DNA of 64,000 bases from Candidatus Hydrogenedentes bacterium UBA6118 (GCA_002422525.1 DIWA01000026.1:264843-328842), one strand, 5' to 3'. Counted from the first letter of the stretch, positions 755-52,331 are shown. The notes: generated by a model from the letters alone, not told the origin. Numbers and translations are program-made.

Positions 755-1384
755 TCACGCCGTTGGCGTCTCCATGAACCGCGCCAGCGTGTCCAGAAAG
801 CGCTTGGCCCATGGACTCGCCTCGGCGACCTTCGCAGGCGAGATCACCTGGAGGATGTGGAACGATGGAACACCCTTCGCGTAGCGTCCGGATCGGCAAC
901 CAGCGCTGGCCTTCTCCAACCCCGAGAGAACGTCATCCTTGGCGATCGACTCGACGCGCGGGTTCTGCGGCAGCGCCTGCGGCCTGAAGTCCTTGCCGAA
1001 GAACGTGCACAGCACACCCTTGTCGGCCAGGAACCACGACTCCATGCAGACGACCATGAGGTGACAGTGATCATCCGTTGCGTTGGCCGGCTTGTCGAAC
1101 CGATCCTCCGGATTCCTCGCGAGGAAGGCCCACGGCGACGGCTCGTCGCCCACGGGACGCTCGCTGTCGATCAAAAGCAGCGCGACATCACCATCGCTGT
1201 GGGGGTGTTCGCAGGCCATCCTGAACCGATCGTGCGCGGCGCGCCGGGACCCGCAGGCGACAATTCTGGGCATACGGCCCTCAAAACCAGCCCTCTTCAG
1301 GAATCGACTGAAGCCTTCACGACAGAGGACATGGAGCGAGGCCGAGTCTCCGCCGCCCTCGACGTAGATTCGGACGGTCACCAC
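755..1384 (-). CDS. DUF4276 family protein (Toprim-like), putative nuclease partner of the upstream ABC ATPase
   Basis: 209 aa. N-terminal IYVEGGGD and LLLIDSERP are Toprim-like acidic motifs. Its start overlaps the ATPase stop by 7 nt, suggesting translational coupling. DUF4276 typically co-occurs with AAA_21 ATPases. Confidence 0.7.
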   Translation of the reverse strand: MVTVRIYVEGGGDSASLHVLCREGFSRFLKRAGFEGRMPRIVACGSRRAAHDRFRMACEHPHSDGDVALLLIDSERPVGDEPSPWAFLARNPEDRFDKPANATDDHCHLMVVCMESWFLADKGVLCTFFGKDFRPQALPQNPRVESIAKDDVLSGLEKASAGCRSGRYAKGVPSFHILQVISPAKVAEASPWAKRFLDTLARFMETPTA

Positions 1385-2553
1385 CGAGTCCCTCCGATCT
1401 CTCCGCTGGTCCAGAGCTCGCCCAACCGGTACTTCTCGAGCCAGGGCTTCAAGCGGTCCGGGTCGAGCCGCTTGACCTGCGTGCCGCCGTCAGCCTTCTC
1501 GCAGACCCGGACGAACCCGGCGTTGTCGTGGAAGGCGTCGACCAGGGCGGGCGAATGGGTGGTGACGATGAGTTGCGTTCGCTCGCTCGCGTCGAGCAGC
1601 AGATCCGCAATGCGGTGGGTCAGGTCGGGATGCAGCCCCAGCTCGGGCTCCTCGATGCAGACGAGCGGAGGAGGATCGTCGTCGCACAGCACCGCCAGCA
1701 GGCAGAGGTACCGCAAGGTCCCGTCGGACAAACGCGTGGCTGGAACGAAGAAGCGGTCCTCTTCGACCAGCACCTGCACGCGCCCGCTCTCGATCGTGAC
1801 ATCCAGGTCGCGAGCCTCAGCGTAGACCGCCCTGAACGCGTCGAGCAGCCGGTCCCGCGTCTGCTGCCTGAGTCGGAGTCGGTTGAGGACCAGCCCCAGA
1901 TTACGGGCATCCGGCTCAAGCCATCTGTTGGGAAGGTCCGCCGGCTGCGGCGTCCGCGGAGCGGTGTACCTCCCCAACGCCCAGTCGCGATAGATGCGGA
2001 TGTCGGAGAGCGTCTCGGCCAGCCGGGTGATCTCGGGGTAACTGTCCGGGTCGCGCCGTTGCGCCAGGATCGAACGTTCCGGGTCGATGTCCTCTCGCTT
2101 GAGCGTGCGCTCGCCCACGTCTTTCACGTTCAACACGGGCCGGTTGTTCTGATAGCGGTAGTAGAAGTACGGGTTCTCGTGGCCCGGGTACGGCTGAGCG
2201 TTCTCAATCCGCTCGTCGACGATCTCGAACCGCTTGCCCGACTCTGTGAACTCAATTCGGTAGCGGAGCGGCTGGCCGGGCCGGTCATCACCGCATGGAG
2301 TATCGATCACGACCTCGATCATCGCGATAGGGGTCCCCTCGGTCCCTTTCCAGAGCCAGTCTCGCACCCCTCCGCCCTCGCGGATGGGTTGGTTGATCTG
2401 CCCCGGCGCCGATTGCAGCAACGCGATGGCCTCCAGCAGGTTGGACTTGCCGGACGCATTGGGGCCGATGACCACGTTCAGACGGTCGAGCGGTATGACA
2501 TCGCTCTCCGGTCCAAACGAGAGCAGGTTCCGCATCTGGATGCTCTGGAGCAT
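1378..2553 (-). CDS. ABC-type (AAA_21) ATPase, OLD/AbiL/PARIS-AriA-like
   Basis: Motifs: Walker A GPNASGKSN, signature RLSDGTLRY, Walker B PLVCIEEPELGLHP, H-loop IVTTHSP, C-terminal YRLGELWTSGEIGG. Start ATG at 2553 has a GAAGGAGG RBS 7 nt upstream. The track ORF extends further upstream to 2625, but that N-terminal extension is not protein-like. Confidence 0.8.
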   Translation of the reverse strand: MLQSIQMRNLLSFGPESDVIPLDRLNVVIGPNASGKSNLLEAIALLQSAPGQINQPIREGGGVRDWLWKGTEGTPIAMIEVVIDTPCGDDRPGQPLRYRIEFTESGKRFEIVDERIENAQPYPGHENPYFYYRYQNNRPVLNVKDVGERTLKREDIDPERSILAQRRDPDSYPEITRLAETLSDIRIYRDWALGRYTAPRTPQPADLPNRWLEPDARNLGLVLNRLRLRQQTRDRLLDAFRAVYAEARDLDVTIESGRVQVLVEEDRFFVPATRLSDGTLRYLCLLAVLCDDDPPPLVCIEEPELGLHPDLTHRIADLLLDASERTQLIVTTHSPALVDAFHDNAGFVRVCEKADGGTQVKRLDPDRLKPWLEKYRLGELWTSGEIGGTRW

Positions 2554-2705
2554 GAATCCTCCTTCGGCCGCGCGCTCCCCGCCTGGCCCCACCCATTCAA
2601 CCACGATCCCCGCGACCGAATCCACACGCCCCCCGCGCGGATGCGCGCCCTACAGCATGGCCGTCGCAGCGTCGTGATCCACGCCGGGATGTAAGACCCC
2701 GGGCC

Positions 2706-3791
2706 GTGGGGTGTATTCTACGCTGGAAGCCGCAAGGACGCGGCGCCGAGACCGAGGATCGCGGAACCGTCGCAGTGGTGCATATCGGAAATCGTTCTAT
2801 CAGCCCGTCGCGTGCCGCGATCCGCTGGACGAGAGGCCTCGCGTGCTGCGCCCTTCTCTGTCTGGCCGCGGGTTGCCCGGTCGAGCCCCTGGACAGGCTG
2901 ACCCTGCCGGGGCCGTACACGGCCGTACTCGAGCTCGTCCACGTCGACGACGGCTGGCGCTATCCGCTCGACCTCAGCGTGATCTACCCGGATGCCGATC
3001 CTCCCGAGGGCGGCTGGCCCGTGATCCTCTTCTCTACCGGCTGGAACCAGGCCCGCGCCTCCTACGACGGCATGGCGTCGCAACTGGCCGAACACGGGTT
3101 CGTCGTCGTGATCCGGTATTTCCCCAGTCTCGGCATCTGGGACCTCGGGTTCGACCTCTTCGACCTGCATCTCGAGCAGTGCGACGCGGTCCTCGCCTGG
3201 TGCGCCGAGCAGAACGCGCTGCCCGGATCGCTCCTGTACGGCCGATGCGACATGACCCGCGTCGGGGCCACGGGCCATTCGATGGGCGGACACGTCTCGA
3301 TCGTCCTCGCCAAACGGGATCCGCGCGTTCAAGCCGTCGTATCCCTCGACGCGCTGGTCGACCGCCCCGGCCTCTACGCCGTGGGCGACCTGTCGGAGCT
3401 GCGCGCGCCGACGCTGTACATCGGCGCCGAGGAAGGCGGGCTCTGCTCAACGTTCACGCTGTCCATGGACGACCCCGTCTGGTTGTACGACTACACGCCG
3501 GCGCCCCGCCAGGAAATCCTGATCACTGGCGCGGATCACCTGGATTTCATCCAGCACCGCACCGGCGAACCGTTGATCGACACGCAACTGTGCAGCGTCG
3601 GCTCCGCGGACGGCTATCTTGTTCGAGACATCGCATCTCGGTATATGATCGGATGGTTCACCTATTTCCTGAAGCAGCGCCCGGAGTACCGAACCTATTT
3701 CGACGGCGCTTGCTCGCAGGAGGACGAACAGAGCGGCGCGGTCGCCATACGGCGGGCGCTCAACGAAACCGACTTGATTGGGGAACCATGA
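2706..3791 (+). CDS. alpha/beta hydrolase lipoprotein (chlorophyllase/dienelactone-hydrolase-like), paralog 1
   Basis: GATGHSMGG nucleophile elbow; lipobox LCLAAGC. The real start may be GTG at ~2775/2778, giving MVHIGNRSISPSRAAIRWTRGLACCALLCLAAGC. It is ~45% identical to the next gene. Its stop overlaps the next start (ATGA). Confidence 0.6.
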   Translation: MGCILRWKPQGRGAETEDRGTVAVVHIGNRSISPSRAAIRWTRGLACCALLCLAAGCPVEPLDRLTLPGPYTAVLELVHVDDGWRYPLDLSVIYPDADPPEGGWPVILFSTGWNQARASYDGMASQLAEHGFVVVIRYFPSLGIWDLGFDLFDLHLEQCDAVLAWCAEQNALPGSLLYGRCDMTRVGATGHSMGGHVSIVLAKRDPRVQAVVSLDALVDRPGLYAVGDLSELRAPTLYIGAEEGGLCSTFTLSMDDPVWLYDYTPAPRQEILITGADHLDFIQHRTGEPLIDTQLCSVGSADGYLVRDIASRYMIGWFTYFLKQRPEYRTYFDGACSQEDEQSGAVAIRRALNETDLIGEP

Positions 3792-4741
3792 CCACGCATC
3801 GACTTCGCCCCGCCGTCCTGTCTGTTCTAGTCGCTCTCGCTTCGGCGTTCGCGCTCTCCGGTTGCTTCCAGCCATCCTCGCTGGGCTTTCCAGGTCCATA
3901 CGAAGCCAGCGCTTACCACGAGACCTACGGCGAGGAAGCGCTCCCGCTCACCGTCTTCTATCCGGACACCAACCCGCCGCGGCGCAACCTGCCGACGATC
4001 ATCTTCACGCCGGGGTTCATCCAGCCGCGCGCGTCGTACGAAAGCTACGGGTGGCAACTGGCGCAATGGGGGTTCGTCGTGGTGATCCGCGCCTACCCCA
4101 GCCTCGGCTTCGGCGGCGTCGGCGACGCGCTCATCGATGACCACGTGATCGAGTGCGGCCGAATCATCGACTGGCTGGTCGAGGAGAACCGCCGCGAGGA
4201 CTCGCGCCTGTACGGCATGATCGACGAGACGCGCTTCGGCGTGGCCGGCCATAGCGTCGGCGCGTCCGTCTCCATCGCAACCGCCGTCACCGACCCCCGC
4301 ATCGACGCGATGGTCGCGCTCGACGTGGCGTACGACGGCGCCGACCTCGACGTGCTGGGCGCGTTGCCCGACACGCAGGCCGCCATGATGTACATTCGCG
4401 GCGACGCAGGCGGCCTCTGCGGACGGTCGCCGTTCGCCACCGTGCCCCTGATCGACTATTCCCCGCCGCCGTCCATCGAGGTCACGATCCGCGGCGCCGA
4501 CCACATGGACTTCCTCGACGGCCTGATCGGCCTTTATGACTTCGGCTACGAAGTCGTCTCGCTTTGCTCCGACGGCCCGGCCGACGAGGAGTGGGTGCGC
4601 GCCATGGCGACGAAGTACATGGTGGCGTGGTTCAACGTGTACTTGAAAGGGCAGGACGAATTCAGGGACTATTACGAGGGCGCTCGGGCGGACGAAGACG
4701 TTGCGGCGGATGCCGTCGATTTCGTCCGGGTTCTCGACTGA
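3788..4741 (+). CDS. alpha/beta hydrolase lipoprotein (chlorophyllase/dienelactone-hydrolase-like), paralog 2
   Basis: Signal peptide MTTHRLRPAVLSVLVALASAFALSGC; GVAGHSVGA GxSxG motif. It occupies the 3' half of the 676-aa track ORF; the 5' half of that ORF is Arg-rich nonsense. Confidence 0.75.
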   Translation: MTTHRLRPAVLSVLVALASAFALSGCFQPSSLGFPGPYEASAYHETYGEEALPLTVFYPDTNPPRRNLPTIIFTPGFIQPRASYESYGWQLAQWGFVVVIRAYPSLGFGGVGDALIDDHVIECGRIIDWLVEENRREDSRLYGMIDETRFGVAGHSVGASVSIATAVTDPRIDAMVALDVAYDGADLDVLGALPDTQAAMMYIRGDAGGLCGRSPFATVPLIDYSPPPSIEVTIRGADHMDFLDGLIGLYDFGYEVVSLCSDGPADEEWVRAMATKYMVAWFNVYLKGQDEFRDYYEGARADEDVAADAVDFVRVLD

Positions 4742-8863: not shown

Positions 8864-9727
8864 TCATTTCCACCCCGCTCCTTGATGGAATACCTCAGCA
8901 GGGGTTCTCTTGTCCAGCGCGCTGTGTCTCCTTTCATAGTTGTAATAGTTGAACCATGCATCAAGCCCCCGGTGCAACTCATGTCCGTCGGCGTAGGACT
9001 TGGGATAGATCTCCTCATACTTCACCGACCACCACAGGCGCTCGATAAACACGTTGTCCAGAGCCCGTCCGCGACCGTCCATGCTGATCGCGATGCCTTT
9101 GTCCAGCAGCACGCGCGTGAAAGCCTGCGAAGTGAACTGCGAGCCCTGGTCCGTGTTGAAGATCTCGGGCGTGCCCCGGCTCAGCGCCCGCTCCAGGGCG
9201 ACCACGCAGAACAGGCCCTCAAGCGTGTTCGAGAGCTCCCATGCCAGCACGAAGCGACTGCGCCACTCCATGACCGCCGTCAGGTACATGAACCCATGAC
9301 GCATCGGAACGTAGGTGATGTCCGTGCTCCAGACCTGGTTCACCCGATCGATCCGCAGATCACGCAGCAAATAGGGGTAGATCACGTGTCCGGGCGCCGG
9401 CTTGCTCGTATGCGGCCCCGGCGTGATCGCCTGGAGCCCCATCCGCTGCATCAGCCGACTTACCCTCTTGCGGTTCACCGCGTGGCCCTGCTCCGCGAGC
9501 CAGTCCGTCATCCGCGGAGACCCGAACTCCGGATGGCGCATGTACTGCTCGTCGATGAGCCGCATCAGCACAAGGTTCTCTTCAGACTCCGGGGCGGGCA
9601 CGTAGTAGAAACTCGACCGAGGAACGCCTGCCAACCTGCATTGCCGCCGAACCGAGAGCCCGGCGCTGGAATCCACCCAGCCCCGGCGCGTTGAAAGCGG
9701 CAGGCTCATAGCTTTTTTTCCAGCCAC
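8864..9727 (-). CDS. IS3-family transposase OrfB (DDE/rve integrase domain)
   Basis: 287 aa with an rve-like core (...WSTDITYVPMRHGFMYLTAVMEW...FNTDQGSQFTS...ERLWWSVKYEEIY). Confidence 0.85.
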   Translation of the reverse strand: MAGKKAMSLPLSTRRGWVDSSAGLSVRRQCRLAGVPRSSFYYVPAPESEENLVLMRLIDEQYMRHPEFGSPRMTDWLAEQGHAVNRKRVSRLMQRMGLQAITPGPHTSKPAPGHVIYPYLLRDLRIDRVNQVWSTDITYVPMRHGFMYLTAVMEWRSRFVLAWELSNTLEGLFCVVALERALSRGTPEIFNTDQGSQFTSQAFTRVLLDKGIAISMDGRGRALDNVFIERLWWSVKYEEIYPKSYADGHELHRGLDAWFNYYNYERRHSALDKRTPAEVFHQGAGWK

Positions 9728-9990
9728 CGGATATCCATCTTCAACCGGCCGATCTCCTCGTAGAGCGGAGCCGTCAACTCCTCCTCGCTCTTGCCGCGCG
9801 CATCCTTGCCCGACGAGAACAACTCGGGAGCCTTCGTCACAAGCTGCTTCTTCCAGGTCGAGATCTGGTTGGGATGCACCTTGTACTCCGCCGCCAGCGC
9901 CGCCAGGGTCTTCACGCCCTTGACCGCCTCAAGCGCAACCTGAGCCTTGAACTTCTCCGTGAATGTCCGTCGTCGTCTTCCCACGTCCAT
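9706..9990 (-). CDS. IS3-family transposase OrfA (HTH); a -1 frameshift into OrfB is expected
   Basis: 94 aa with a leucine-zipper-like tail. The 22-nt overlap with orfB contains AAAAAAG. Confidence 0.8.
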   Translation of the reverse strand: MDVGRRRRTFTEKFKAQVALEAVKGVKTLAALAAEYKVHPNQISTWKKQLVTKAPELFSSGKDARGKSEEELTAPLYEEIGRLKMDIRWLEKKL

Positions 9991-10062
9991 GCGTCCTTTC
10001 CTACCAGCTCAAGGACGCAAATTCCACCTAAGCCCCTGGTCCGAAAATCGGGGGCAACCGCA

Positions 10063-10678
10063 TCGCGAACGAGTTGAGCTCGAACCCATTCGTCTTCAGC
10101 CCTTCCGTCCACAATGCCAGCGCCTCGCTCTCGCGACCTTCGGGCGCGCGCACCGTGATCTCCAGCCAGTTCGTCAGGACGCTCGGGCGCTTGCCGGCGG
10201 GCGCCTCCTGCCCGTCCGCCGGAGCCACCTGCACCTCCACCCGAAACCTGTGCACCCCTGGACGGTCCAGCACAAATGCGCTGGTCCCGCCGTACGCCGT
10301 CAGGAGGTCGCGTACCGTGTACGCCCCGCCCGGCGCCAGCTCGATGCGGTTGGCGCGGGAGTAAGATCCAGAGGACGCGCGGACGTAGCGCGCGTGCTCC
10401 TCGCTCCCCGGTCGCTGTTGGTACACCGTCGTGGAGCCGTCGCCAATCTCCCAGGGCGCGTTCACCCGCAGCGGATCCTGCGTGACGTTCGTCAGCGTCA
10501 GCTCCAACACCAGCGGTTCGCAGCACACATACGTCTGCTTCGGCGACCCGATGGTGTAGGCCACGCTTCCGGAAGCCGCGCCCGCCTCGCCGAACGCGGC
10601 CCCGCCCGCCAGCAACACGAGCCCCAGTGCAGCCGCGATGAACCACCCGCCGCCGTTTCTGCGTCTCTCTGCGTCCAT
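10063..10678 (-). pseudogene. 5' (N-terminal) fragment of the same type-1 paralog disrupted by IS3
   Basis: Signal peptide MDAERRRNGGGWFIAAALGLVLLAGGAAFG plus the SPKQTYVCCEPLVLELTLTNV domain, ~85% identical to the paralog at 14106-15080. The track ORF reads through into the IS to 10028. Confidence 0.7.
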
Positions 10679-10753
10679 GTCCGCCTCCCTGCCCCCAGTT
10701 CGTGCGTCTCCCCGTCACGGCGCCTCGCTGAGCATCTCCCTGATCCTCCCTCC

Positions 10754-11812
10754 TCACGGAACCGGCGGGTCTTCCTCGCCGCGGAGCAGGCGTTCGACGT
10801 ACTCCGTGTGGCGGCTGTCGGGGAAGCGCTCGCGCATCGCGTCGCAGATCTCCTGCGCCTCCGCCTCCATGTGCGCGCTCAGGTAGGCCTGCGTCAACTG
10901 CACCATCGCGCTGCTCAACAGCGGGAAGTCCGCCGCGTCCGCATCCCGCACGAACGCCTCGAACATCTCGACCCGCGACTGCTGCGCCTGCGCGATCCGC
11001 TGGCCCATCTCCGGGATCGGCGCTCGAGACGCTTCCAGAACGCTCCGGTGCGCTTCGCCGGCAACCCAGATCATCCGTTGATAGAGCCCGAACACCGTGT
11101 CTCCGAACTCCGTCGCCAGTCGCTCCCGCGCCTTCCGCGCCCTCTCCCGAACCGCAGGATCCCGGCTCCGGCCGCCGCGCAATACATCGCCGAACAGCGC
11201 ACTGGCGTCGCGATCCCGGCCTTGGGCCGCGACGACCTTGACCTCCAGCACGTTCGACCGAACCAACCTGCCGCAGTGCGCATCCGCCGTGTTCTCGGGG
11301 TCGGTCACGCAAGGCAGGTACGCGCACATGACCTCGTACACGCCCGTGCGAGTGAACGGGATTCCTGCCCCGGGACCCTGCGACCGGCCCACGTACTCCA
11401 GCAGCTTGCCGCCCTTCAGGGACGCGCCGGGCTCCACCAGCGCGATCTTCTCAGAGAAGTCATCGAAGAACTCCAACGGTCTCACGTCGTAGCCGTCGCC
11501 GTCCGGCTCGGTGATATGCACGTCCACGTTAGGTTCCAGGATCCATACGCTCTCCTCACCGGCATACGTGATCCGCCAGTCCAGGGCGAGCGGCTCGTTC
11601 GGCAGAAGGGTTGTTTTCGGCGAGGATACCGTCAGCGTGAACGGCAGATCCGGCGCCGCTTCGTCGTCGCCCATGCCGCTCCCGGTGTGCGCAAAGGGCG
11701 CGTCGCGCTCCACCGCATCACTAGCGAGGGACGAAACGGCCAGCACGGCGCAGAGCACCGTGCCGAACAGTCTGCGGCGACTGATGTTCCTGTCGCATCG
11801 CACCAGCATCAT
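10754..11812 (-). CDS. secreted paralog, type 2 (SPKTT beta-sandwich + FPDS helical tail family)
   Basis: Probable start at MMLVRCDRNISRRRLFGTVLCAVLAVSSLA (signal peptide); the track ORF starts with GTG at 11953. C-terminus ...EAFVRDADAADFPLLSSAM...RERFPDSRHTEYVERLLRGEEDPPVP. Paralogous to 16191-17243 and 17315-18376. Confidence 0.65.
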   Translation of the reverse strand: MMLVRCDRNISRRRLFGTVLCAVLAVSSLASDAVERDAPFAHTGSGMGDDEAAPDLPFTLTVSSPKTTLLPNEPLALDWRITYAGEESVWILEPNVDVHITEPDGDGYDVRPLEFFDDFSEKIALVEPGASLKGGKLLEYVGRSQGPGAGIPFTRTGVYEVMCAYLPCVTDPENTADAHCGRLVRSNVLEVKVVAAQGRDRDASALFGDVLRGGRSRDPAVRERARKARERLATEFGDTVFGLYQRMIWVAGEAHRSVLEASRAPIPEMGQRIAQAQQSRVEMFEAFVRDADAADFPLLSSAMVQLTQAYLSAHMEAEAQEICDAMRERFPDSRHTEYVERLLRGEEDPPVP

Positions 11813-11865
11813 CGTGATCACCTCCCTGTTTGGCCGCGCAAGACGACCATGCACTCCGCTACGTC

Positions 11866-13800
11866 CTAGTACGTGAAGTAGAATGCATTGCCTCGGATAT
11901 GGGCCTTGCATAGGTCGCAGAACGTTCCGGCTACGCCACTGCGCATCAGGCACACGTCTGCGGGATCTGGATGGTCTGCAAGGCCAAAGAAGTGGCCGAC
12001 CTCGTGCGCTGCGACGCGATCCGTCGTGAGCGCAAGGTCCTCGGAGATGCTCTCCACAAAGACAGCAGCGACAGGTGCTTCATCGTGGTGCAATGATGCG
12101 CCTCCCAAGACTCGCTCCTCGTCACATCCTGGGAAGCCCCCTTCAGGGTTGGGATCCCCGTCCCGCGCGTAACATGGGTCATAGCACACAACAACCTGCC
12201 CCGCCCAGTATCTGGCATCTGCCGGACTTCCGCAGTACTGCCTCAGGAACTCCGGCATGGCGTAGTTGTCGTCGCCACGGTAGACGTAGTCATAGTGACT
12301 GCTAGGGTCCCATGGGGCATACGCATGCACAGGCATATTCCGTCTGAACGGCACATCCGACGTGTCTTCCCCGGTATCGAACCTGGCCTCAATGTACGCC
12401 TCCTGAAGCGAGGCGACGATGGTGTCCGTCGGCGCGGGCGGAAGGGCGCCCCCCGGATCCGTGTCCTCCGTGTCTATCCGGTACGGGTCGCCCGACGACG
12501 CATTGGCGGTGATGTCAGGCGGCGTGCCGTGGAGCGTGAAGGCCGTGTCTGCCGAGTTCTGCCAAACGACATAGCGCCCTGGATCGAAGTCGGACCTGTT
12601 CGGATCGACAACCGCTCCGATGAGCTGATCGCAGCGGTAGGGCGTGACAAGCCACTCCGAGTGCGTCGGCCCCCAGTCCGCCGTGTCGTCCTCCAGGTAG
12701 CCCGAGCCCGTGTGGTGACTCGACAGAGCGGTGCTGTTCCCGGTAACGACGCCGAAAACCTCGCTGGGCGAAGGCGCCCCCATCGCGTCGCGTTCTATGT
12801 GCAGCGATCGCCACACGGTCAGCATCTCGGTCATGGCGCCGACGGGCGGCGTGAGCCCGTAGTCGGCCGAACCCTGCGAACCCAGCCCCGTCGAGTCGTT
12901 GATGCAAGCCGCGGTCACGCGGTAGTTGTCGCCCGGATTGAGGCTCACTACAAGCACTGCCTCTGCCACCCCGTTCGCGTCGGTGCTGGCGGTCACTGTT
13001 GTGCTGGCAGGTTCGCCCGCCCAGCCGCCAAGGCCGCGGTTGTCCGGACCGGTGACCCCCCCATTGGGATCGACCGGGGCGGTGGTCGACGACGGGTCGT
13101 CGACGTCCCAGACGCGAAAGTAGACCGTGATCCCGGCGATCGGCGGTTCGACTGTCGCCTTCACGCTCACGCGGTCCCTCCGACTCGGGTAGGCGTCGTT
13201 GTAGGTCAGTTTGTCTGGAAAGATGCGCTTGCTGCCGTTGTTGTTGGGACAGTCGTCGAGGTCCCGGTTGGTCGCATGGTGTTTCTGCCACACGACCTCC
13301 GTCACCGCGGCGAGCGCCAGTTGAACGCCGATCTGCCCCGAGGGATCGTCGGCGACAAGCCCCGGATCGTCGATGGTGCAGTGGGCCGCGTAGAGCCCCG
13401 GATCGAGATCCGCGGGCAGGGTCCACTTGCGCACCCAGTACCGATCCGTCGCGGCTGTCGTTCCGCCGTCCGTCGCCCACCCGGTGAAGGACACATAGTC
13501 GCCGTCCACCACGGGCACGGTCAGCATATAGTCGGTATCACTCATCGCGCCATACAGCCACAGCGTCTGCTGGAAAGCCCTCAGCATGAGCCGATGGACA
13601 CCGCCCACGCTCGGCACTTCATCCCCCGCGCCGTTCTGCACCTGGAGCTCGGTGTCCGCGATGTACGGAAACGGGAAGTACATCTGCGCATCGGTGACGC
13701 GCGGCGTCAGCCACAAGAGCGATGTCGCGAACACGCCCGTCGCGATCGCGGCCCACCGCGCCGCACGCCGTGCTCCTCCATTCAGCCTGGTTCTCTGCAT
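11866..13800 (-). CDS. secreted 644-aa protein with a snapalysin-like zinc-metalloprotease motif HEVGHFFGLADH near the C-terminus
   Basis: Signal peptide MQRTRLNGGARRAARWAAIATGVFATSLLWLTP. Long beta-rich body. HExxHxxGxxD(H) matches the M7/snapalysin consensus HETGHVLGLPDHY. It is embedded in the paralog array and preceded by a conserved promoter/leader. Confidence 0.7.
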   Translation of the reverse strand: MQRTRLNGGARRAARWAAIATGVFATSLLWLTPRVTDAQMYFPFPYIADTELQVQNGAGDEVPSVGGVHRLMLRAFQQTLWLYGAMSDTDYMLTVPVVDGDYVSFTGWATDGGTTAATDRYWVRKWTLPADLDPGLYAAHCTIDDPGLVADDPSGQIGVQLALAAVTEVVWQKHHATNRDLDDCPNNNGSKRIFPDKLTYNDAYPSRRDRVSVKATVEPPIAGITVYFRVWDVDDPSSTTAPVDPNGGVTGPDNRGLGGWAGEPASTTVTASTDANGVAEAVLVVSLNPGDNYRVTAACINDSTGLGSQGSADYGLTPPVGAMTEMLTVWRSLHIERDAMGAPSPSEVFGVVTGNSTALSSHHTGSGYLEDDTADWGPTHSEWLVTPYRCDQLIGAVVDPNRSDFDPGRYVVWQNSADTAFTLHGTPPDITANASSGDPYRIDTEDTDPGGALPPAPTDTIVASLQEAYIEARFDTGEDTSDVPFRRNMPVHAYAPWDPSSHYDYVYRGDDNYAMPEFLRQYCGSPADARYWAGQVVVCYDPCYARDGDPNPEGGFPGCDEERVLGGASLHHDEAPVAAVFVESISEDLALTTDRVAAHEVGHFFGLADHPDPADVCLMRSGVAGTFCDLCKAHIRGNAFYFTY

Positions 13801-13894
13801 GTCTCACGTCCTCCGTGGGAACCGCCGTTACAGAACATGCATGCCGTCTCCCGCCTCAGCGGGACGGCGAATGGGCTGAACTCCGGTCCGGCAA

Positions 13895-14011
13895 TCACCT
13901 CCCTCCAATCGGGAGGAACGCCGGGAAGAGACACGACACAGACGGGAAGGCCGAGCGACGGATGCGTCGCCCGAAGGGGGGATAGGCTGCTGTCAGTCCA
14001 GAAGGTCTCAT
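13895..14011 (-). pseudogene. relic 5' end of a type-2 paralog (38-codon ORF MRPSGLTAAYPPFGRRIRRS...), now the 5' leader of the metalloprotease gene
   Basis: Nearly identical to the first codons and 5' UTR of the gene at 17315-18376, then diverges and stops. Confidence 0.4.
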
Positions 14012-14057
14012 CGCACGGCGTCCCAGCCTCGCGCTGTATACCTCGGCCTATGCATCG

Positions 14058-14086
14058 ACTCTACACCGTATTGGATGGGCTGTCAA
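14058..14086 (-). promoter_or_regulatory. sigma70-type promoter TTGACA-17 bp-TAGAGT with an upstream A-tract (copy 2)
   Basis: On the minus strand: aaaaaaggtcTTGACAgcccatccaatacggtgTAGAGTcg. It is near-identical to the promoter at 18423-18451 and is an extreme AT-rich outlier in a ~70% GC region. Confidence 0.5.
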
Positions 14087-14105
14087 GACCTTTTTTCGGC
14101 GCCTC

Positions 14106-15080
14106 CTACTCGCCCTCCGCGGCCTCGCGCGCGGCGGCGCGTTCGGCATCCTCCGCATACCGCTCGTACCAGGGCTTGCGCTCCGCCGCCTCCTCCGCGA
14201 GAGGGCTGTCCGGATACTCCGCCAGCAACTCGCCCAACACCGCCGCGCCATCGCTGTAGCGTTGCGCGGATCTGTACGCCCGCGCCAGGTCGAGCATCAC
14301 CTCGTCGCGCAACGCGAAGTCCGGCGCGTTGAGGTAGAGGTCCTCGAGTTCTCCCAGCGACGACTCGGTAAGACCGCCGACCGTGCAACGTTTGTGGCGC
14401 CCATGGAAGGCGTAGACCGTATCGGGGAACTCGGTCAACAGCCGGCTCAGGGCGCCGCCCCGAGTCGCGAACGAGTTAAGGTCGAACCCATTCGTCTTCA
14501 GTCCTTCCGTCCACAATGCCAGCGCCTCGCTCTCGCGACCTTCGGGCGCGCGCACCGTGACCTCCAGCCAGTTCGTCAGAACGCTCGGGCGCTTGCCGGA
14601 GGGCGCGTCCTGCCCGTCCGCCGGCGCAAGCTGCGCCTCCACCCGAAACCTGTGCACGCCTGGACGGTCCAGCACAAACGCGCTGGTCCCGCCGTACGCC
14701 GTCAGGAGGTCGCGGACCGTGTACGCCCCGCCCGGCGCCAGCTCGACAATGTTGGGGGAGAGGTAATCGCTGAAGATCGCGGGGACGTAGCGTGCCTGTT
14801 CCTCGCTCCCCGGTCGCTGCTGGTACACCGTCGTGCGGCCGTCGCCAATGTCCCAGGGCGCGTTCACCTGCACCGGATCCTGCGTGACGTTCGTCAGCGT
14901 CAGCTCCAACACCAGCGGTTCGCAGCACACATACGTCTGCTTCGGCGACCTGATGGTGTAGGCCACGCTTCCGGAAGCCGCGCCCGCGTCGCCGAACGCG
15001 GCCCCGCCCGCCAGCAACACAAGCCCCGCCGCGGCCGCGATGAGCCACCCGCCGCCGTTCCTGTGTCTCTTCGTATTCAT
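14106..15080 (-). CDS. secreted paralog, type 1 (SPKQT beta-sandwich + YPDS helical tail), intact copy
   Basis: Signal peptide MNTKRHRNGGGWLIAAAAGLVLLAGGAAFG; GGGAGG RBS; tail LAEYPDSPLAEEAAERKPWYERYAEDAERAAAREAAEGE. Confidence 0.7.
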   Translation of the reverse strand: MNTKRHRNGGGWLIAAAAGLVLLAGGAAFGDAGAASGSVAYTIRSPKQTYVCCEPLVLELTLTNVTQDPVQVNAPWDIGDGRTTVYQQRPGSEEQARYVPAIFSDYLSPNIVELAPGGAYTVRDLLTAYGGTSAFVLDRPGVHRFRVEAQLAPADGQDAPSGKRPSVLTNWLEVTVRAPEGRESEALALWTEGLKTNGFDLNSFATRGGALSRLLTEFPDTVYAFHGRHKRCTVGGLTESSLGELEDLYLNAPDFALRDEVMLDLARAYRSAQRYSDGAAVLGELLAEYPDSPLAEEAAERKPWYERYAEDAERAAAREAAEGE

Positions 15081-15116
15081 GTCTACCTCCCTGCCCCCAG
15101 TTCGTGCCTTCCCCCG

Positions 15117-16115
15117 TCACCGCGCCTCGCGCGCGGCGGCGCGTTCGGCGTCCTCCGCATACCGCTCGTACCAGGGCTTGCGCTCCGCCGCCTCCTCCGC
15201 GAGAGGGCTGTCCGGATACTCGGCCAGCAACTCGCCCAGCACCGCCGCGCCATCGCTGTAGCGTTGCGCGGATCTGTACGCCCGCGCCAGGTCGAGCATC
15301 ACCTCGTCGCGCAACGCGAAGTCCGGCGCGTTGAGGTAGAGGTCCTCGAGGATCGCCTGCCGGCACGCCTCCTGCGAGCGCCCCTGCAACGTCGACTCGG
15401 GCAACGCGCCCCGCTTGGCCAGCGCGGACCGCGCGTGCCGCCCGTAGACCGTGTCCGGGTGATCCGCGACCAGCGCCGCGACCGCCTCATCGGACTGATC
15501 CAGCGATCCCAGGTCGAACGCAGCCCGCTGGAGCGCCGCCAGCCAGAGCGCCAAGGCCTCCGCGTCGCGGTCCGCCGGGGCGCCGACCGTCACCTGGACC
15601 TCGTTGCTCACGACGGCCGGCCAGCCCGACGCCGGCTTGCCGCCATCGCCGGAGTCCACCGTGAACCGCGCCCGGAACCGGTACGCGCCCGGCAACGCGA
15701 GAACGAACGGGTTGGCGCCTGCTCGGTCATCGGTCTCCATCGTCGCAAGGATCCCCCGCAGGCGGATCGCGCCGTCCGCGGCAAGCGGCGCCCGGAGCGG
15801 GACCATGAGGCTGAGGGTCGACGGCGGCTGGTACACGCGCCATTCCGCCTCGCCCGGACCGCACACCTCGATCATGAGGGGCGCCTGCCCGACCTGCGGC
15901 GGCAACGTCACCGTGAGCGCCCCCTCCGCGTCGGTCTCAAGCGCAACATCCAGCACGATGGGCTCACCGACGAGACACTGCGCGTCGCCGCTATGCCGGA
16001 GCGTCACGCGGATCGCGTCCGACGCGCACCACGCGGCCCCGCCCGCCAGCAACACAAGCCCCACTGCGGCCGCGATGAACCCGCCGCCGCCATTCCTGCG
16101 TCTCTTCGTGTTCAT
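15117..16115 (-). CDS. secreted paralog, type 1 variant (divergent middle, same signal peptide and tail)
   Basis: Probable start MNTKRRRNGGGGFIAAAVGLVLLAGGAAWCAS with the conserved GGGAGGCAGACATG leader. The C-terminal ~75 aa are near-identical to 14106-15080. Confidence 0.65.
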   Translation of the reverse strand: MNTKRRRNGGGGFIAAAVGLVLLAGGAAWCASDAIRVTLRHSGDAQCLVGEPIVLDVALETDAEGALTVTLPPQVGQAPLMIEVCGPGEAEWRVYQPPSTLSLMVPLRAPLAADGAIRLRGILATMETDDRAGANPFVLALPGAYRFRARFTVDSGDGGKPASGWPAVVSNEVQVTVGAPADRDAEALALWLAALQRAAFDLGSLDQSDEAVAALVADHPDTVYGRHARSALAKRGALPESTLQGRSQEACRQAILEDLYLNAPDFALRDEVMLDLARAYRSAQRYSDGAAVLGELLAEYPDSPLAEEAAERKPWYERYAEDAERAAAREAR

Positions 16116-16190
16116 GTCTGCCTCCCTGCCCCCAGTTCGTGCCTTCCCCCCGTCACGGCGTCTCCCGCGCATCTCCCTGATCCTCCGTCC

Positions 16191-17243
16191 TCACGGAACC
16201 GGCGGGTCCTCCTCGCCGCGAAGCAGGCGCTCGACATGCTCCGTGTGGCGGCTGTCCGGGAAGCGCTTGCGCATGGTCTCGCAGATCTCCTGCGCCTCCG
16301 CCTCCATGTGCGCGCTCAGGTAGGCCTGCGCCAACTGCTGCATCGCGCTGTCCAGCAGCGGGAAATCCGCCGCCTCCGCATCCCGCACGAACGCCTCGAA
16401 CATCTCGACCCGCGACTGCTGCGCCTGCGCCCGCGTATGCTCCACGTCCCGCGTGTCCGCATACCCGGCCGCGTGCACGCCCCAGCGCCCGGCCACGGCG
16501 ATGCGCGGCAGTCTCTCGTACAGCCCGAACACCGTGTCGCCGAACTCCGTCGCCAGTCGCTCCGCGGCCGCCGCGGCCTCCTCACGGGCCGCTTCCTTGG
16601 GGCTATAGGTCCCGAGCAGCACCGTCCGGTACAGCGCGCCCGCCTCGGCGTCGCGTCCCTTGGCCGGGTTCACTGTCACTGTGAGTACATTCGACCGGAC
16701 CAGCTTGCCCCGCCGCGACCCCGTGGCGCGATCCGGATCGGTCACCAAAGGGCCGAAGGCGCAGCGCACCTCGTACACGCCCGGTCGAGAGAACGGCACG
16801 ACCACAGGGGGGACGCCCCGCCGCGCAGCCGTCTGCAACAGCATGCCGCTCGCATGGACGTACCCCGGCTCGACCTGAACAGGAGGAGGCTGCGAGGTCA
16901 TGAAATGCGTCGTTTCCCGCAAGTTGTAGCCGGTTCCGCCCGGCTCGGTGATGTGCACCATCACCTCCGGCTTCCTGATCCAGATGGACTCGGAACCTGT
17001 GTAGGAAAGCCGCCAGTCCAGAACCAGCGGCTCGTTCGGCAGAAGCGTCGTCTTCGGCGACGATATCGTCAGCGTGAACGGGAGATCCGGCGCATTCTCC
17101 TCGTCCTTCGCGTACCTCAGCCACTGCTCGAAAGGGGCGTCCAGGTCGAGCCCGGCCGCCGCCGCAACCGGACAGACCAAGGCCGAGAGCACGACGATGC
17201 TCGCGACCAACCCTGCGTATCTGACTCTGCTCTCATCCGACAT
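16191..17243 (-). CDS. secreted paralog, type 2
   Basis: Signal peptide MSDESRVRYAGLVASIVVLSALVCPVAAAAG; SSPKTTLLPNEPLVLDW domain. The 3' ~230 nt are near-identical to the 3' end of 17315-18376. Confidence 0.7.
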   Translation of the reverse strand: MSDESRVRYAGLVASIVVLSALVCPVAAAAGLDLDAPFEQWLRYAKDEENAPDLPFTLTISSPKTTLLPNEPLVLDWRLSYTGSESIWIRKPEVMVHITEPGGTGYNLRETTHFMTSQPPPVQVEPGYVHASGMLLQTAARRGVPPVVVPFSRPGVYEVRCAFGPLVTDPDRATGSRRGKLVRSNVLTVTVNPAKGRDAEAGALYRTVLLGTYSPKEAAREEAAAAAERLATEFGDTVFGLYERLPRIAVAGRWGVHAAGYADTRDVEHTRAQAQQSRVEMFEAFVRDAEAADFPLLDSAMQQLAQAYLSAHMEAEAQEICETMRKRFPDSRHTEHVERLLRGEEDPPVP

Positions 17244-17314
17244 ACCGCATCCCTCCCGATCGAACAGACCCCATCGCGCCGCCGGAGTTCGCCCCTACTC
17301 GCCCTCCTCCGTGC

Positions 17315-18376
17315 TCACGGAACCGGCGGGTCCTCCTCGCCGCGGAGCAGGCGCTCGACGTACTCCGTGTGGCGGCTGTCCGGGAAGCGCTTACGCATGG
17401 TCTCGCAGATCTCCCGCGCCTCCGCCTCCATGTGCGCGCTCAGGTAGGCCTGCGCCAACTGCTGCATCGCGCTGTCCAGCAGCGGGAAATCCGCCGCCTC
17501 CGCATCCCGCACGAACGCCTCGAACATCTCCACCCGCGACTGCTGGGCTCTGCGCAGATCGCCCTGTCCGCCCCGGCTTGCCTCCCAGACGCCGTGCTCC
17601 GACGCCGCTGCAACCCGCGACTGCCGTTGGTAGAGCCCAAACACCGTGTCGCCGAACTCCGCAACCAACCGCTCCGCGGCGGACACTGACTCGTCGCGAC
17701 TGACCTGGCCGTCTCCATAGACACCGAACATGACCGTTCGGTACAACGCGCCCGCCTCGGCGTCGCGTCCCTTAGCGGGCTTCACGGTCACCGTCAGTAC
17801 GTTCGAGTGCACCGGCCTGCCGCCAACGGTCGCTTGGCGCGTCTCCGGGTCAGCCAACGCAGGCGCGAGCCTGCACTGAACCTGGTAGACGCCGGGCCGC
17901 GCGAAGGGTATGACCATCCGCGTCGCCGAGGGTTTGGAGACGATCTGCAGCAGCTTGCCGCCGGTCCGTACGCAGCCCGGTTCCATCGCCTCGACCACGG
18001 CGCGGTCGAAGTGCACATGCATCCACCGCTTCACGTCGTAGCCGTCGCCATCCGGCTCCGTGATGTGCACCTTCACGTCCGGCGCAACGACCCAGATCGT
18101 CTCATTCCCGGCATACGTGATCCGCCAGTCCAGGGCGAGCGGCTCGTTCGGCAGAAGGGTCGTCTTCGGCGACGAAATCGTCAGCGTCAACGACAGGTCC
18201 GGCGCCGCTTCGTCGTCGCCCATGCCGCTCCCGGTGTGCGCAGACGGCGCGTCGCGCTCCGCCGCGGTCGCAACCGGACAGAGCAATGCGAAGAGGAGAA
18301 CGGCGAGATGCACAGGCGAGCGACGGATGCGTCGCCCGGAGGGGGGATAGGCTGCTGTCATTCCTGAAGGTCTCAT
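17315..18376 (-). CDS. secreted paralog, type 2 (first gene of the array, directly after the conserved promoter)
   Basis: N-terminus MRPSGMTAAYPPSGRRIRRSPVHLAVLLFALLCPVATAA. Same domain organisation and the FPDSRHTEYVERLLRGEEDPPVP tail. Confidence 0.7.
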   Translation of the reverse strand: MRPSGMTAAYPPSGRRIRRSPVHLAVLLFALLCPVATAAERDAPSAHTGSGMGDDEAAPDLSLTLTISSPKTTLLPNEPLALDWRITYAGNETIWVVAPDVKVHITEPDGDGYDVKRWMHVHFDRAVVEAMEPGCVRTGGKLLQIVSKPSATRMVIPFARPGVYQVQCRLAPALADPETRQATVGGRPVHSNVLTVTVKPAKGRDAEAGALYRTVMFGVYGDGQVSRDESVSAAERLVAEFGDTVFGLYQRQSRVAAASEHGVWEASRGGQGDLRRAQQSRVEMFEAFVRDAEAADFPLLDSAMQQLAQAYLSAHMEAEAREICETMRKRFPDSRHTEYVERLLRGEEDPPVP

Positions 18377-18422
18377 CGCACGGCGTCCCTGCCTCGCGCT
18401 GGATACCTCGGCCTACGCGTCC

Positions 18423-18451
18423 ACTCTATGCCGTCTGCGCGCGGCTGTCAA
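18423..18451 (-). promoter_or_regulatory. sigma70-type promoter TTGACA-17 bp-TAGAGT with an upstream A-tract (copy 1), ~40-nt 5' UTR to ATG 18376
   Basis: On the minus strand: ggtaaaaaggtcTTGACAgccgcgcgcagacggcaTAGAGTggacg. It is duplicated at 14058-14086. Confidence 0.55.
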
Positions 18452-18569
18452 GACCTTTTTACCGGGCTCAGGCGCCCCGCAGACGGCAAAAGGCCCCGAC
18501 GCGGGGCGTCAGGGCCTCTGCAATGCGCCGCCGCTCCGTCGCGGAGGGCGGGATGTCTGCGTTCGCGGA

Positions 18570-51974: not shown

Positions 51975-52331
51975 TGGTGGAGGCGGCGGGAATCGAACCC
52001 GCGTCCGAAGGTGCATCGACGTAAGCGTCTACGTGTGTAGCCCGTCCTTTAGGATTCGCCGCCTTGGACCGCGTCGGGCTCGCTGACCAAGGCCGCTAGG
52101 CGGAGGACGTACTCTCCACCGACGGCTCCGCCGTCCCTCGGCTTCGAGGCCTGCTGTCGACGCCTTAGCCCCCTAGCAGGCGGTCAGGGGTAAGACGGGA
52201 GGCCTAAGTTAGGCCGCCATTGCCAAAGGTTCGTTGGCAGTTGTGAAATGATCGGCTTTTTACGAGGCCAGCCGACCAACCTCGACACGCAACTCACGCT
52301 TCATCACCCCCGTCGAAACCTTGTCGCCCCC
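51975..52331 (-). ncRNA. ssrA: tmRNA (transfer-messenger RNA)
   Basis: 5' GGGGGCGACAAGGTTTCGACGGGGG and 3' GGGTTCGATTCCCGCCGCCTCCACCA. Internal tag ORF GCC AAC GAA CCT TTG GCA ATG GCG GCC TAA encodes ANEPLAMAA. Confidence 0.8.

Follow-up and report, generated by a model that had tools for sequence, protein, structure and literature searches.

The ATPase–DUF4276 gene pair

The window analysed here, a stretch of 64,000 nucleotides (nt) from Candidatus Hydrogenedentes bacterium UBA6118 (GCA_002422525.1, DIWA01000026.1:264843-328842), carries at positions 755–2553 two overlapping genes coding for an ABC ATPase and a DUF4276 protein. By its profile matches, this pair is a member of HEC-01, a candidate anti-phage family already catalogued in PADLOC. 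The pair is encoded on the minus strand, and the span 755–2553 given in an earlier note, drawn up from the sequence alone, proved to be exact. The ATPase gene (HEC-01A, nt 1378–2553) runs from an ATG at 2553 to a TGA at 1380–1378 and codes for 391 amino acids (aa). The DUF4276 gene (HEC-01B, nt 755–1384) starts from a GTG at either 1384 or 1381 and ends with the stop codon at 755–757, thus coding for 209 or 208 aa, respectively. As read directly from the sequence, the two genes share the motif GTGGTGA (nt 1378–1384, minus strand), which contains the TGA of the ATPase gene and the GTG start of the DUF4276 gene, with an overlap of 7 nt (GTG 1384) or 4 nt (GTG 1381). The second GTG is the one chosen by the gene callers on public contigs, leading to a 4-nt GTGA overlap, and the overlapped gene order is also present in homologous HEC-01 loci. 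The pair had been described in the earlier note as translationally coupled: the overlap is there and its configuration is consistent with coupling, which we infer from it.

The ATPase start was placed at ATG 2553 because homologues from many phyla begin at the equivalent of its MLQSIQ N-terminus (MLxSIQ). A Shine-Dalgarno sequence, GGAGG (nt 2558–2562, minus strand), is found 4 nt 5' of this ATG, and is kept both in the sister lineage L004 (as GGGAGG) and in L173, a third closely related set consisting of an isolated contig of 1,926 nt. The ATPase reading frame is open up to a GTG at 2625; this codon was rejected as a start, having no support from homologues and implying a coding sequence that would run through the upstream copy of the repeat described below. 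The same protein pair is present on public metagenome contigs of 130–348 kb.

Family assignment by profile searches

In Pfam, the first protein matched AAA_21 (E 4.3e-40, model positions 1–304 of 304) and the second matched DUF4276 (E 5.3e-19, positions 1–191 of 192). When compared with PADLOC-DB, both proteins gave full-length matches with the two components of HEC-01, namely HEC-01A (PDLC04177; E 2.9e-171, 567.8 bits, residues 1–391 on model positions 4–393 of 393) and HEC-01B (PDLC04201; E 2.4e-72, residues 1–204 on model positions 1–200 of 202), the HEC-01B match sitting in the gene that adjoins HEC-01A on the same strand. A PADLOC run would have given the locus this same label, HEC-01, originally reported as the Hma-embedded candidate 01 and pairing an ABC ATPase with a TOPRIM-like protein (Payne et al., bioRxiv 10.1101/2024.01.29.577857).

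All ten PADLOC families matched by the second protein at E ≤ 1 were HEC-01B models, and none of the AriB, AbiLii, Old or mad4 models was matched at this threshold. Pfam did not retrieve any match of this protein with DUF4435 or Toprim_Old at E ≤ 1, nor did NCBIfam give any match. In NCBIfam, all matches of the first protein fell below threshold, namely MAD3 (NF047739; 82.9 bits, cut-off 420) and RecF (29 bits, cut-off 172, so that the RecF equivalog is not an appropriate name for it), and in PADLOC it gave partial matches with mad3 (E 6.6e-28) and AbiLi (E 2.3e-25). The locus had been proposed to be a "PARIS/AbiL/OLD-like" split ATPase and Toprim nuclease. Such a description holds as an analogy of architecture and fails as a statement of membership, since the second protein matches HEC-01B models alone and not DUF4435.

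Conserved motifs of the ATPase

The motifs expected for an ABC ATPase are complete and, in an alignment with 30 homologues from several phyla (61–72% identity), their residues are invariant: G30, N32, G35, K36 and S37 in the Walker A motif, Q165 in the Q-loop, the signature L275-S-D-G-T279, C299, I300, E302 and P303 in Walker B, and the H-loop T331-T-H-S334. Structural comparison indicates an SMC/Rad50-type head without coiled coil, for which AriA and OLD are no closer matches than Rad50, SMC or PtuA. The Pfam match, the invariant residues and the structural comparison thus agree with the earlier identification of an AAA_21 ATPase bearing all ABC motifs.

The DUF4276 protein as a predicted Toprim-fold nuclease

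No PDB sequence match, AriB included, was found with the DUF4276 profile at E ≤ 10, and the link of this protein with Toprim therefore required structural comparison. The AlphaFold model, a confident one (pLDDT 94.9, pTM 0.90), has strands at residues 4–10, 40–45, 67–73 and 107–110 and shows the three-layer alpha/beta arrangement with a four-stranded parallel sheet that defines the Toprim fold. Its best structural matches are OLD-family nucleases, with the ranking OLD > AriB > GajA; the top Foldseek match, TsOLD, is weak (E 0.12), and the 60 structural matches listed do not include RecR.

Five acidic residues, E9, D73, E75, E115 and D121, are invariant in 50 DUF4276 homologues. E9 is located near the end of strand 1 and D73-S-E75 at the end of strand 3, and they thus coincide with the two Toprim motifs as placed in PMC12065111, a Glu following strand 1 and a DxD following strand 3, the latter here in a DxE variant. 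The Toprim-like acidic motifs and the Toprim relationship that had been claimed for the 209-aa protein are borne out by these residues and by the fold model with its OLD-family matches. In the literature, DUF4276 has been assigned to the Toprim superfamily and Mad4 called its homologue (PMC12065111), and HEC-01B has been given the same assignment, with the finding of a conserved metal site (Payne et al., bioRxiv 10.1101/2024.01.29.577857). HEC-01B is accordingly described here, on the basis of its model, as a predicted Toprim-fold, metal-dependent nuclease and the putative effector of the pair. The DUF4276 family comprises 1,858 representatives (50% clustering, E ≤ 1e-3), nearly all of about 200 aa.

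A direct repeat brackets the module

Two copies of a direct repeat, to which no strand is assigned and which are ~90% identical, bracket the module exactly. The upstream copy (~82 nt, nt 2568–2650) ends 14 nt before the ATPase ATG, and the downstream copy (nt 670–750) starts 4 nt past the DUF4276 stop, upstream of a GH172 gene. The score of their local alignment was 117, against 22.5 ± 2.6 for shuffled sequences, and a 33-nt core of the repeat is present in these two copies and nowhere else in the 64-kb window, the chance expectation being 0. The same bracket is present in L004, where the two copies are identical at 71 of 71 positions, and the L173 contig both starts and ends in the repeat core, consistent with the same arrangement. 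At several positions the two copies agree within a genome yet differ from those of the other genome; within-genome copies being more alike than orthologous ones, these positions point to concerted evolution, i.e., exchange between copies.

Flanking repeats were not found at the seven other HEC-01 loci examined, and exact-pattern scans of a metagenome-contig and a genome-contig collection did not retrieve the repeat elsewhere. Prediction of the RNA fold of the repeat gave non-significant z-scores (−1.7 to +1.0), Rfam showed no match with it (a tmRNA elsewhere was the only match in the window), and sigma-70 and terminator scans revealed nothing relevant. An empty site was looked for through both neighbouring genes. 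GH172 searches returned 160 loci at ≤72% identity, none of them syntenic and none with HEC-01; the PETase-like neighbour on the other side returned three homologue clusters, with a 53% identical relative having DHDPS upstream and neither GH172 nor the module on its 4-kb contig. As no empty site was found among these relatives, insertion polarity could not be shown.

The repeat may be a scar of insertion, a promoter region that was duplicated or a substrate for recombination. A more specific proposal, to which we give little credence, is that the repeats, rather than being a passive scar, serve as the functional ends of a cassette that has no recombinase and can loop out and re-insert by recombination between them. 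If this were so, a housekeeping site could acquire or shed a minimal defence module as one piece, resulting in on/off immunity at the population level, and this would suggest a general route by which two-gene defence islets move without mobility genes of their own.

Genomic neighbourhood and other features of the window

On one flank, the module is followed by two tandem PETase/chlorophyllase-like hydrolase genes, a gene for a 202-aa protein, iPGM and a Gfo/Idh/MocA oxidoreductase gene; on the other, by GH172 (ATG 598, minus strand), GH42, infC-rpmI-rplT and more housekeeping genes. No other defence genes were seen within 10 kb of the module, and Pfam scans of 20 of the larger open reading frames (ORFs), located from about 11.9 to 53.6 kb, did not reveal restriction, BREX or other defence genes, the final ~10 kb of the window and shorter ORFs not being included. 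The pair is thus solitary between unrelated metabolic genes, as the earlier note had it, and is not embedded in Hma or in any other multi-gene defence system. Hma embedding is how HEC-01 was discovered and is not given as a membership criterion in the sources.

The tandem hydrolase genes (nt 2775–3791 and 3788–4741, plus strand) overlap by 4 nt and their products are about 42% identical; the family is very rare, with three clusters at E ≤ 1e-20 in a collection of 5.8 billion proteins. At about 6.3 kb from the module, an IS3-family transposase gene (HTH_Tnp_1 and rve; nt 8864–9990, minus strand) was found, beside which an ORF of 217 aa (nt 10028–10678, minus strand) shares 85% identity with residues 1–207 of a 324-aa ORF (nt 14106–15080), and looks like a truncated copy of the gene for the latter. 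Both belong to an array of six paralogous ORFs (nt 10028–18376, minus strand), five of 324–353 aa plus the truncated copy, which is split by a 644-aa ORF. The array ORFs have hydrophobic, signal-peptide-like N-termini and fall in two subfamilies (49–85% identity within, 25–39% between); no Pfam match was found for the four that were scanned. No feature of the window other than a full-length tmRNA gene (nt 51975–52331, minus strand; RF00023, 176.5 bits) exceeded the gathering score in Rfam.

Contexts of homologous pairs

The genomic context of HEC-01 was compared at eight distinct loci. Three of these are nested in BREX systems: in P. aeruginosa, the pair (65% and 47% identical to the ATPase and nuclease here) lies between PglX/SduA_C-like genes and PglZ of a type 1 BREX; on a contig carrying an ATPase sequence named 'Malikia spinosa', it precedes PglZ-BrxL, again in a type 1 BREX; and on an IMG/VR contig it belongs to a locus with DUF6079, an N6_N4 methylase, an SNF2 helicase and PglZ. 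Two HEC-01-bearing BREX loci (L177, nt 863–2520; L176, nt 10078–11618) also carry a second, shorter AAA_21 ATPase (344–381 aa) followed by a 169–171-aa protein without Pfam match, which may be another embedded pair of an ATPase and an effector.

Besides the locus described here, the solitary pairs are one beside MoxR/BatA, one in Pseudomonas sp. NFIX10 after thrS-infC-rpmI-rplT-pheST-ihfA, and one among LpxK, PfkB and glycosyltransferase genes of the lipopolysaccharide-core type. In two unrelated genomes, the solitary pair is found within about 5–6 kb of infC-rpmI-rplT (L001, the lineage here, nt 17302–18534; L179, Pseudomonas sp. NFIX10, nt 2312–3505), which may be a coincidence or a common insertion neighbourhood. 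One of the eight loci keeps the ATPase without the nuclease gene: this HEC-01A homologue (L011, nt 10001–11185; 65% identity) is convergent with the gene for a 1,018-aa AAA_11/AAA_12 helicase with an MTES_1575 domain.

Spread and selection

The ATPase is patchily distributed across phyla at 60–72% identity, and the G+C content of the module is 5–8 points under that of its flanks in three of four solitary loci, and 3 points under in the lineage here. Patchy spread and low G+C content fit horizontal transfer. In the sister lineage L004 the module occupies the same site; between the two lineages the flanking proteins are 93–98% identical, the ATPase 95.6% and the nuclease 84.5%. Since the split from L004, the ratio of non-synonymous to synonymous substitution rates (dN/dS) has been 0.085 in the ATPase and 0.23 in the nuclease, the neighbours ranging from 0.07 to 0.23, and the dN of the nuclease is four-fold above that of the neighbours. 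Values well below 1 indicate that both genes are maintained by purifying selection, and pseudogene status was rejected on these grounds. Faster divergence of the nuclease was observed in every pair compared, with ATPase/nuclease identities of 67/57%, 65/47% and 60/48%.

A likely role in defence and the alternatives

We consider it likely that the locus is a stand-alone HEC-01 member, i.e., a horizontally spread two-gene accessory module, most probably directed against phages or other mobile elements. A defence role is supported by the homologous pairs embedded in BREX loci (guilt by embedding), and a HEC-01 representative from cold-seep metagenomes is reported to have protected E. coli B from one or more of T4, T5 and T7 (PMC12881386).

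Several observations weigh against this role. When another HEC-01 representative was challenged in E. coli with a BASEL subset and with classic coliphages, it did not protect (Payne et al., bioRxiv 10.1101/2024.01.29.577857), and both published phage tests used representatives other than the locus described here. Half of the sampled loci (four of eight, one of them here) lie outside defence islands, in housekeeping contexts. Unlike PARIS, HEC-01 is almost absent from phages, with no tblastn match in 50,697 phage records, no PHROG match and one match in 2.9 million IMG/VR contigs, and it is absent from plasmids (no tblastn match in 72,556). Finally, the mean column identity of the ATPase across phyla (72%) is unusually high if this protein is presumed to sense variable phage proteins, and in every pair compared the ATPase evolves more slowly than the nuclease, the reverse of what would be expected if it were the ATPase that tracked such proteins.

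As for how a HEC-01 defence might operate, a guide is offered by PARIS, in which the AriA hexamer holds AriB and frees it on sensing Ocr, AriB then cleaving tRNA-Lys (PMC11464382). An Ocr-like trigger for the pair here, raised in the earlier note, is speculative. On the model of PARIS, OLD and Gabija, the ATPase would dimerise or oligomerise on ATP, serving as sensor and regulator, and would hold or gate the nuclease until an infection cue frees or activates HEC-01B. The latter could then cut nucleic acid by two-metal chemistry, halting phage replication, possibly at the cell's cost. Its substrate might be DNA, if it acts like OLD and GajA, or tRNA/RNA, if it acts like AriB, and the structural ranking given above does not decide between them.

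The pair could instead be a selfish, toxin-antitoxin-like addiction cassette, in which a Toprim nuclease toxin is restrained by the ATPase and loss of the module is costly, with no dedicated anti-phage role. Pfam describes AAA_21 as 'putative AbiEii toxin, Type IV TA system', the module is small, with overlapping genes, and horizontally spread in unrelated contexts, and one locus keeps the ATPase without the nuclease. BREX embedding and the reported protection (PMC12881386) nevertheless favour immunity, HEC-01 was not found on plasmids, where addiction modules are common, and toxin-antitoxin and abortive-infection roles are not exclusive; addiction as the sole role appears unlikely. In another alternative, the pair would be RecF/RecR-like or Rad50-like, its SMC/Rad50-type ABC ATPase acting with the Toprim protein on chromosomal DNA, and would have a housekeeping or stress function in repair or maintenance instead of one in immunity. 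Such a function is improbable, considering that the RecF score falls far under its cut-off, that the Toprim protein matches OLD, AriB and GajA best and RecR is missing from its listed matches, that the distribution is patchy across phyla, with near-identical architectures nested in BREX loci, that the G+C content of the module is below that of its flanks, and that one anti-phage phenotype has been published (PMC12881386). That the locus is a decaying, non-functional remnant of a defence system stripped of its partner genes, e.g., a surrounding BREX or Hma, is scarcely credible: the pair is indeed solitary here, though HEC-01 was discovered embedded in larger systems, and the dN of its nuclease is raised, but both frames are intact with all motif residues present, dN/dS is low for both genes, and the module is kept at the same site in L004.

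Under the favoured reading of a stand-alone defence module, the locus adds a clean and intact example to a candidate family with a mixed experimental record, and leaves the picture of ABC-ATPase/Toprim immunity unchanged. Three features could guide work on HEC-01, namely the conserved, slow-evolving ATPase, which argues against a sensor tracking variable phage proteins, the division of the family into BREX-embedded copies and solitary copies among housekeeping genes, and its distribution, with almost no occurrence in phages and none in plasmids, in which it differs from PARIS.

Comparison with known systems

Membership in PARIS was rejected, as the effector is not a DUF4435 protein and showed no match with an AriB model in PADLOC or with an AriB sequence in the PDB. 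AriB is a DUF4435 protein of 305 aa, whereas the protein here is a DUF4276 protein of 209 aa; AriA is longer (464 aa) than the ATPase described here and does not appear to be the ATPase nearest to it; and HEC-01, in contrast with PARIS, is nearly absent from phages and satellites. In OLD proteins, both of class 1 (P2 Old, TsOLD) and of class 2 (BpOLD), and in GajA, ATPase and Toprim are fused in one polypeptide, whereas here they are encoded by two genes; moreover, GajA has the helicase GajB as its partner, and a helicase is missing here. OLD and Gabija were thus rejected on the basis of two separate, overlapping ORFs and of the absence of a UvrD-like helicase within 10 kb.

Mad3/Mad4 of MADS and AbiL, which are grouped with PARIS in the literature (MADS3-4 and AbiL), resemble the pair in having an AAA_15/21 ABC ATPase beside a Toprim-superfamily protein. 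MADS was rejected for the low MAD3 score, the lack of a mad4 match and the absence of other MADS genes or a methyltransferase nearby, and AbiL for the partial AbiLi match of the first protein and the lack of an AbiLii match for the second.

The copy described here differs from other HEC-01 loci in lying outside Hma, BREX and restriction-modification systems and in being bracketed by the ~82-nt repeat, not seen at the other loci examined. What it has in common with HEC-01 is both protein families, their order and their overlap, the ABC ATPase coming first and the DUF4276 protein, of Toprim fold and bearing a conserved metal site, second.
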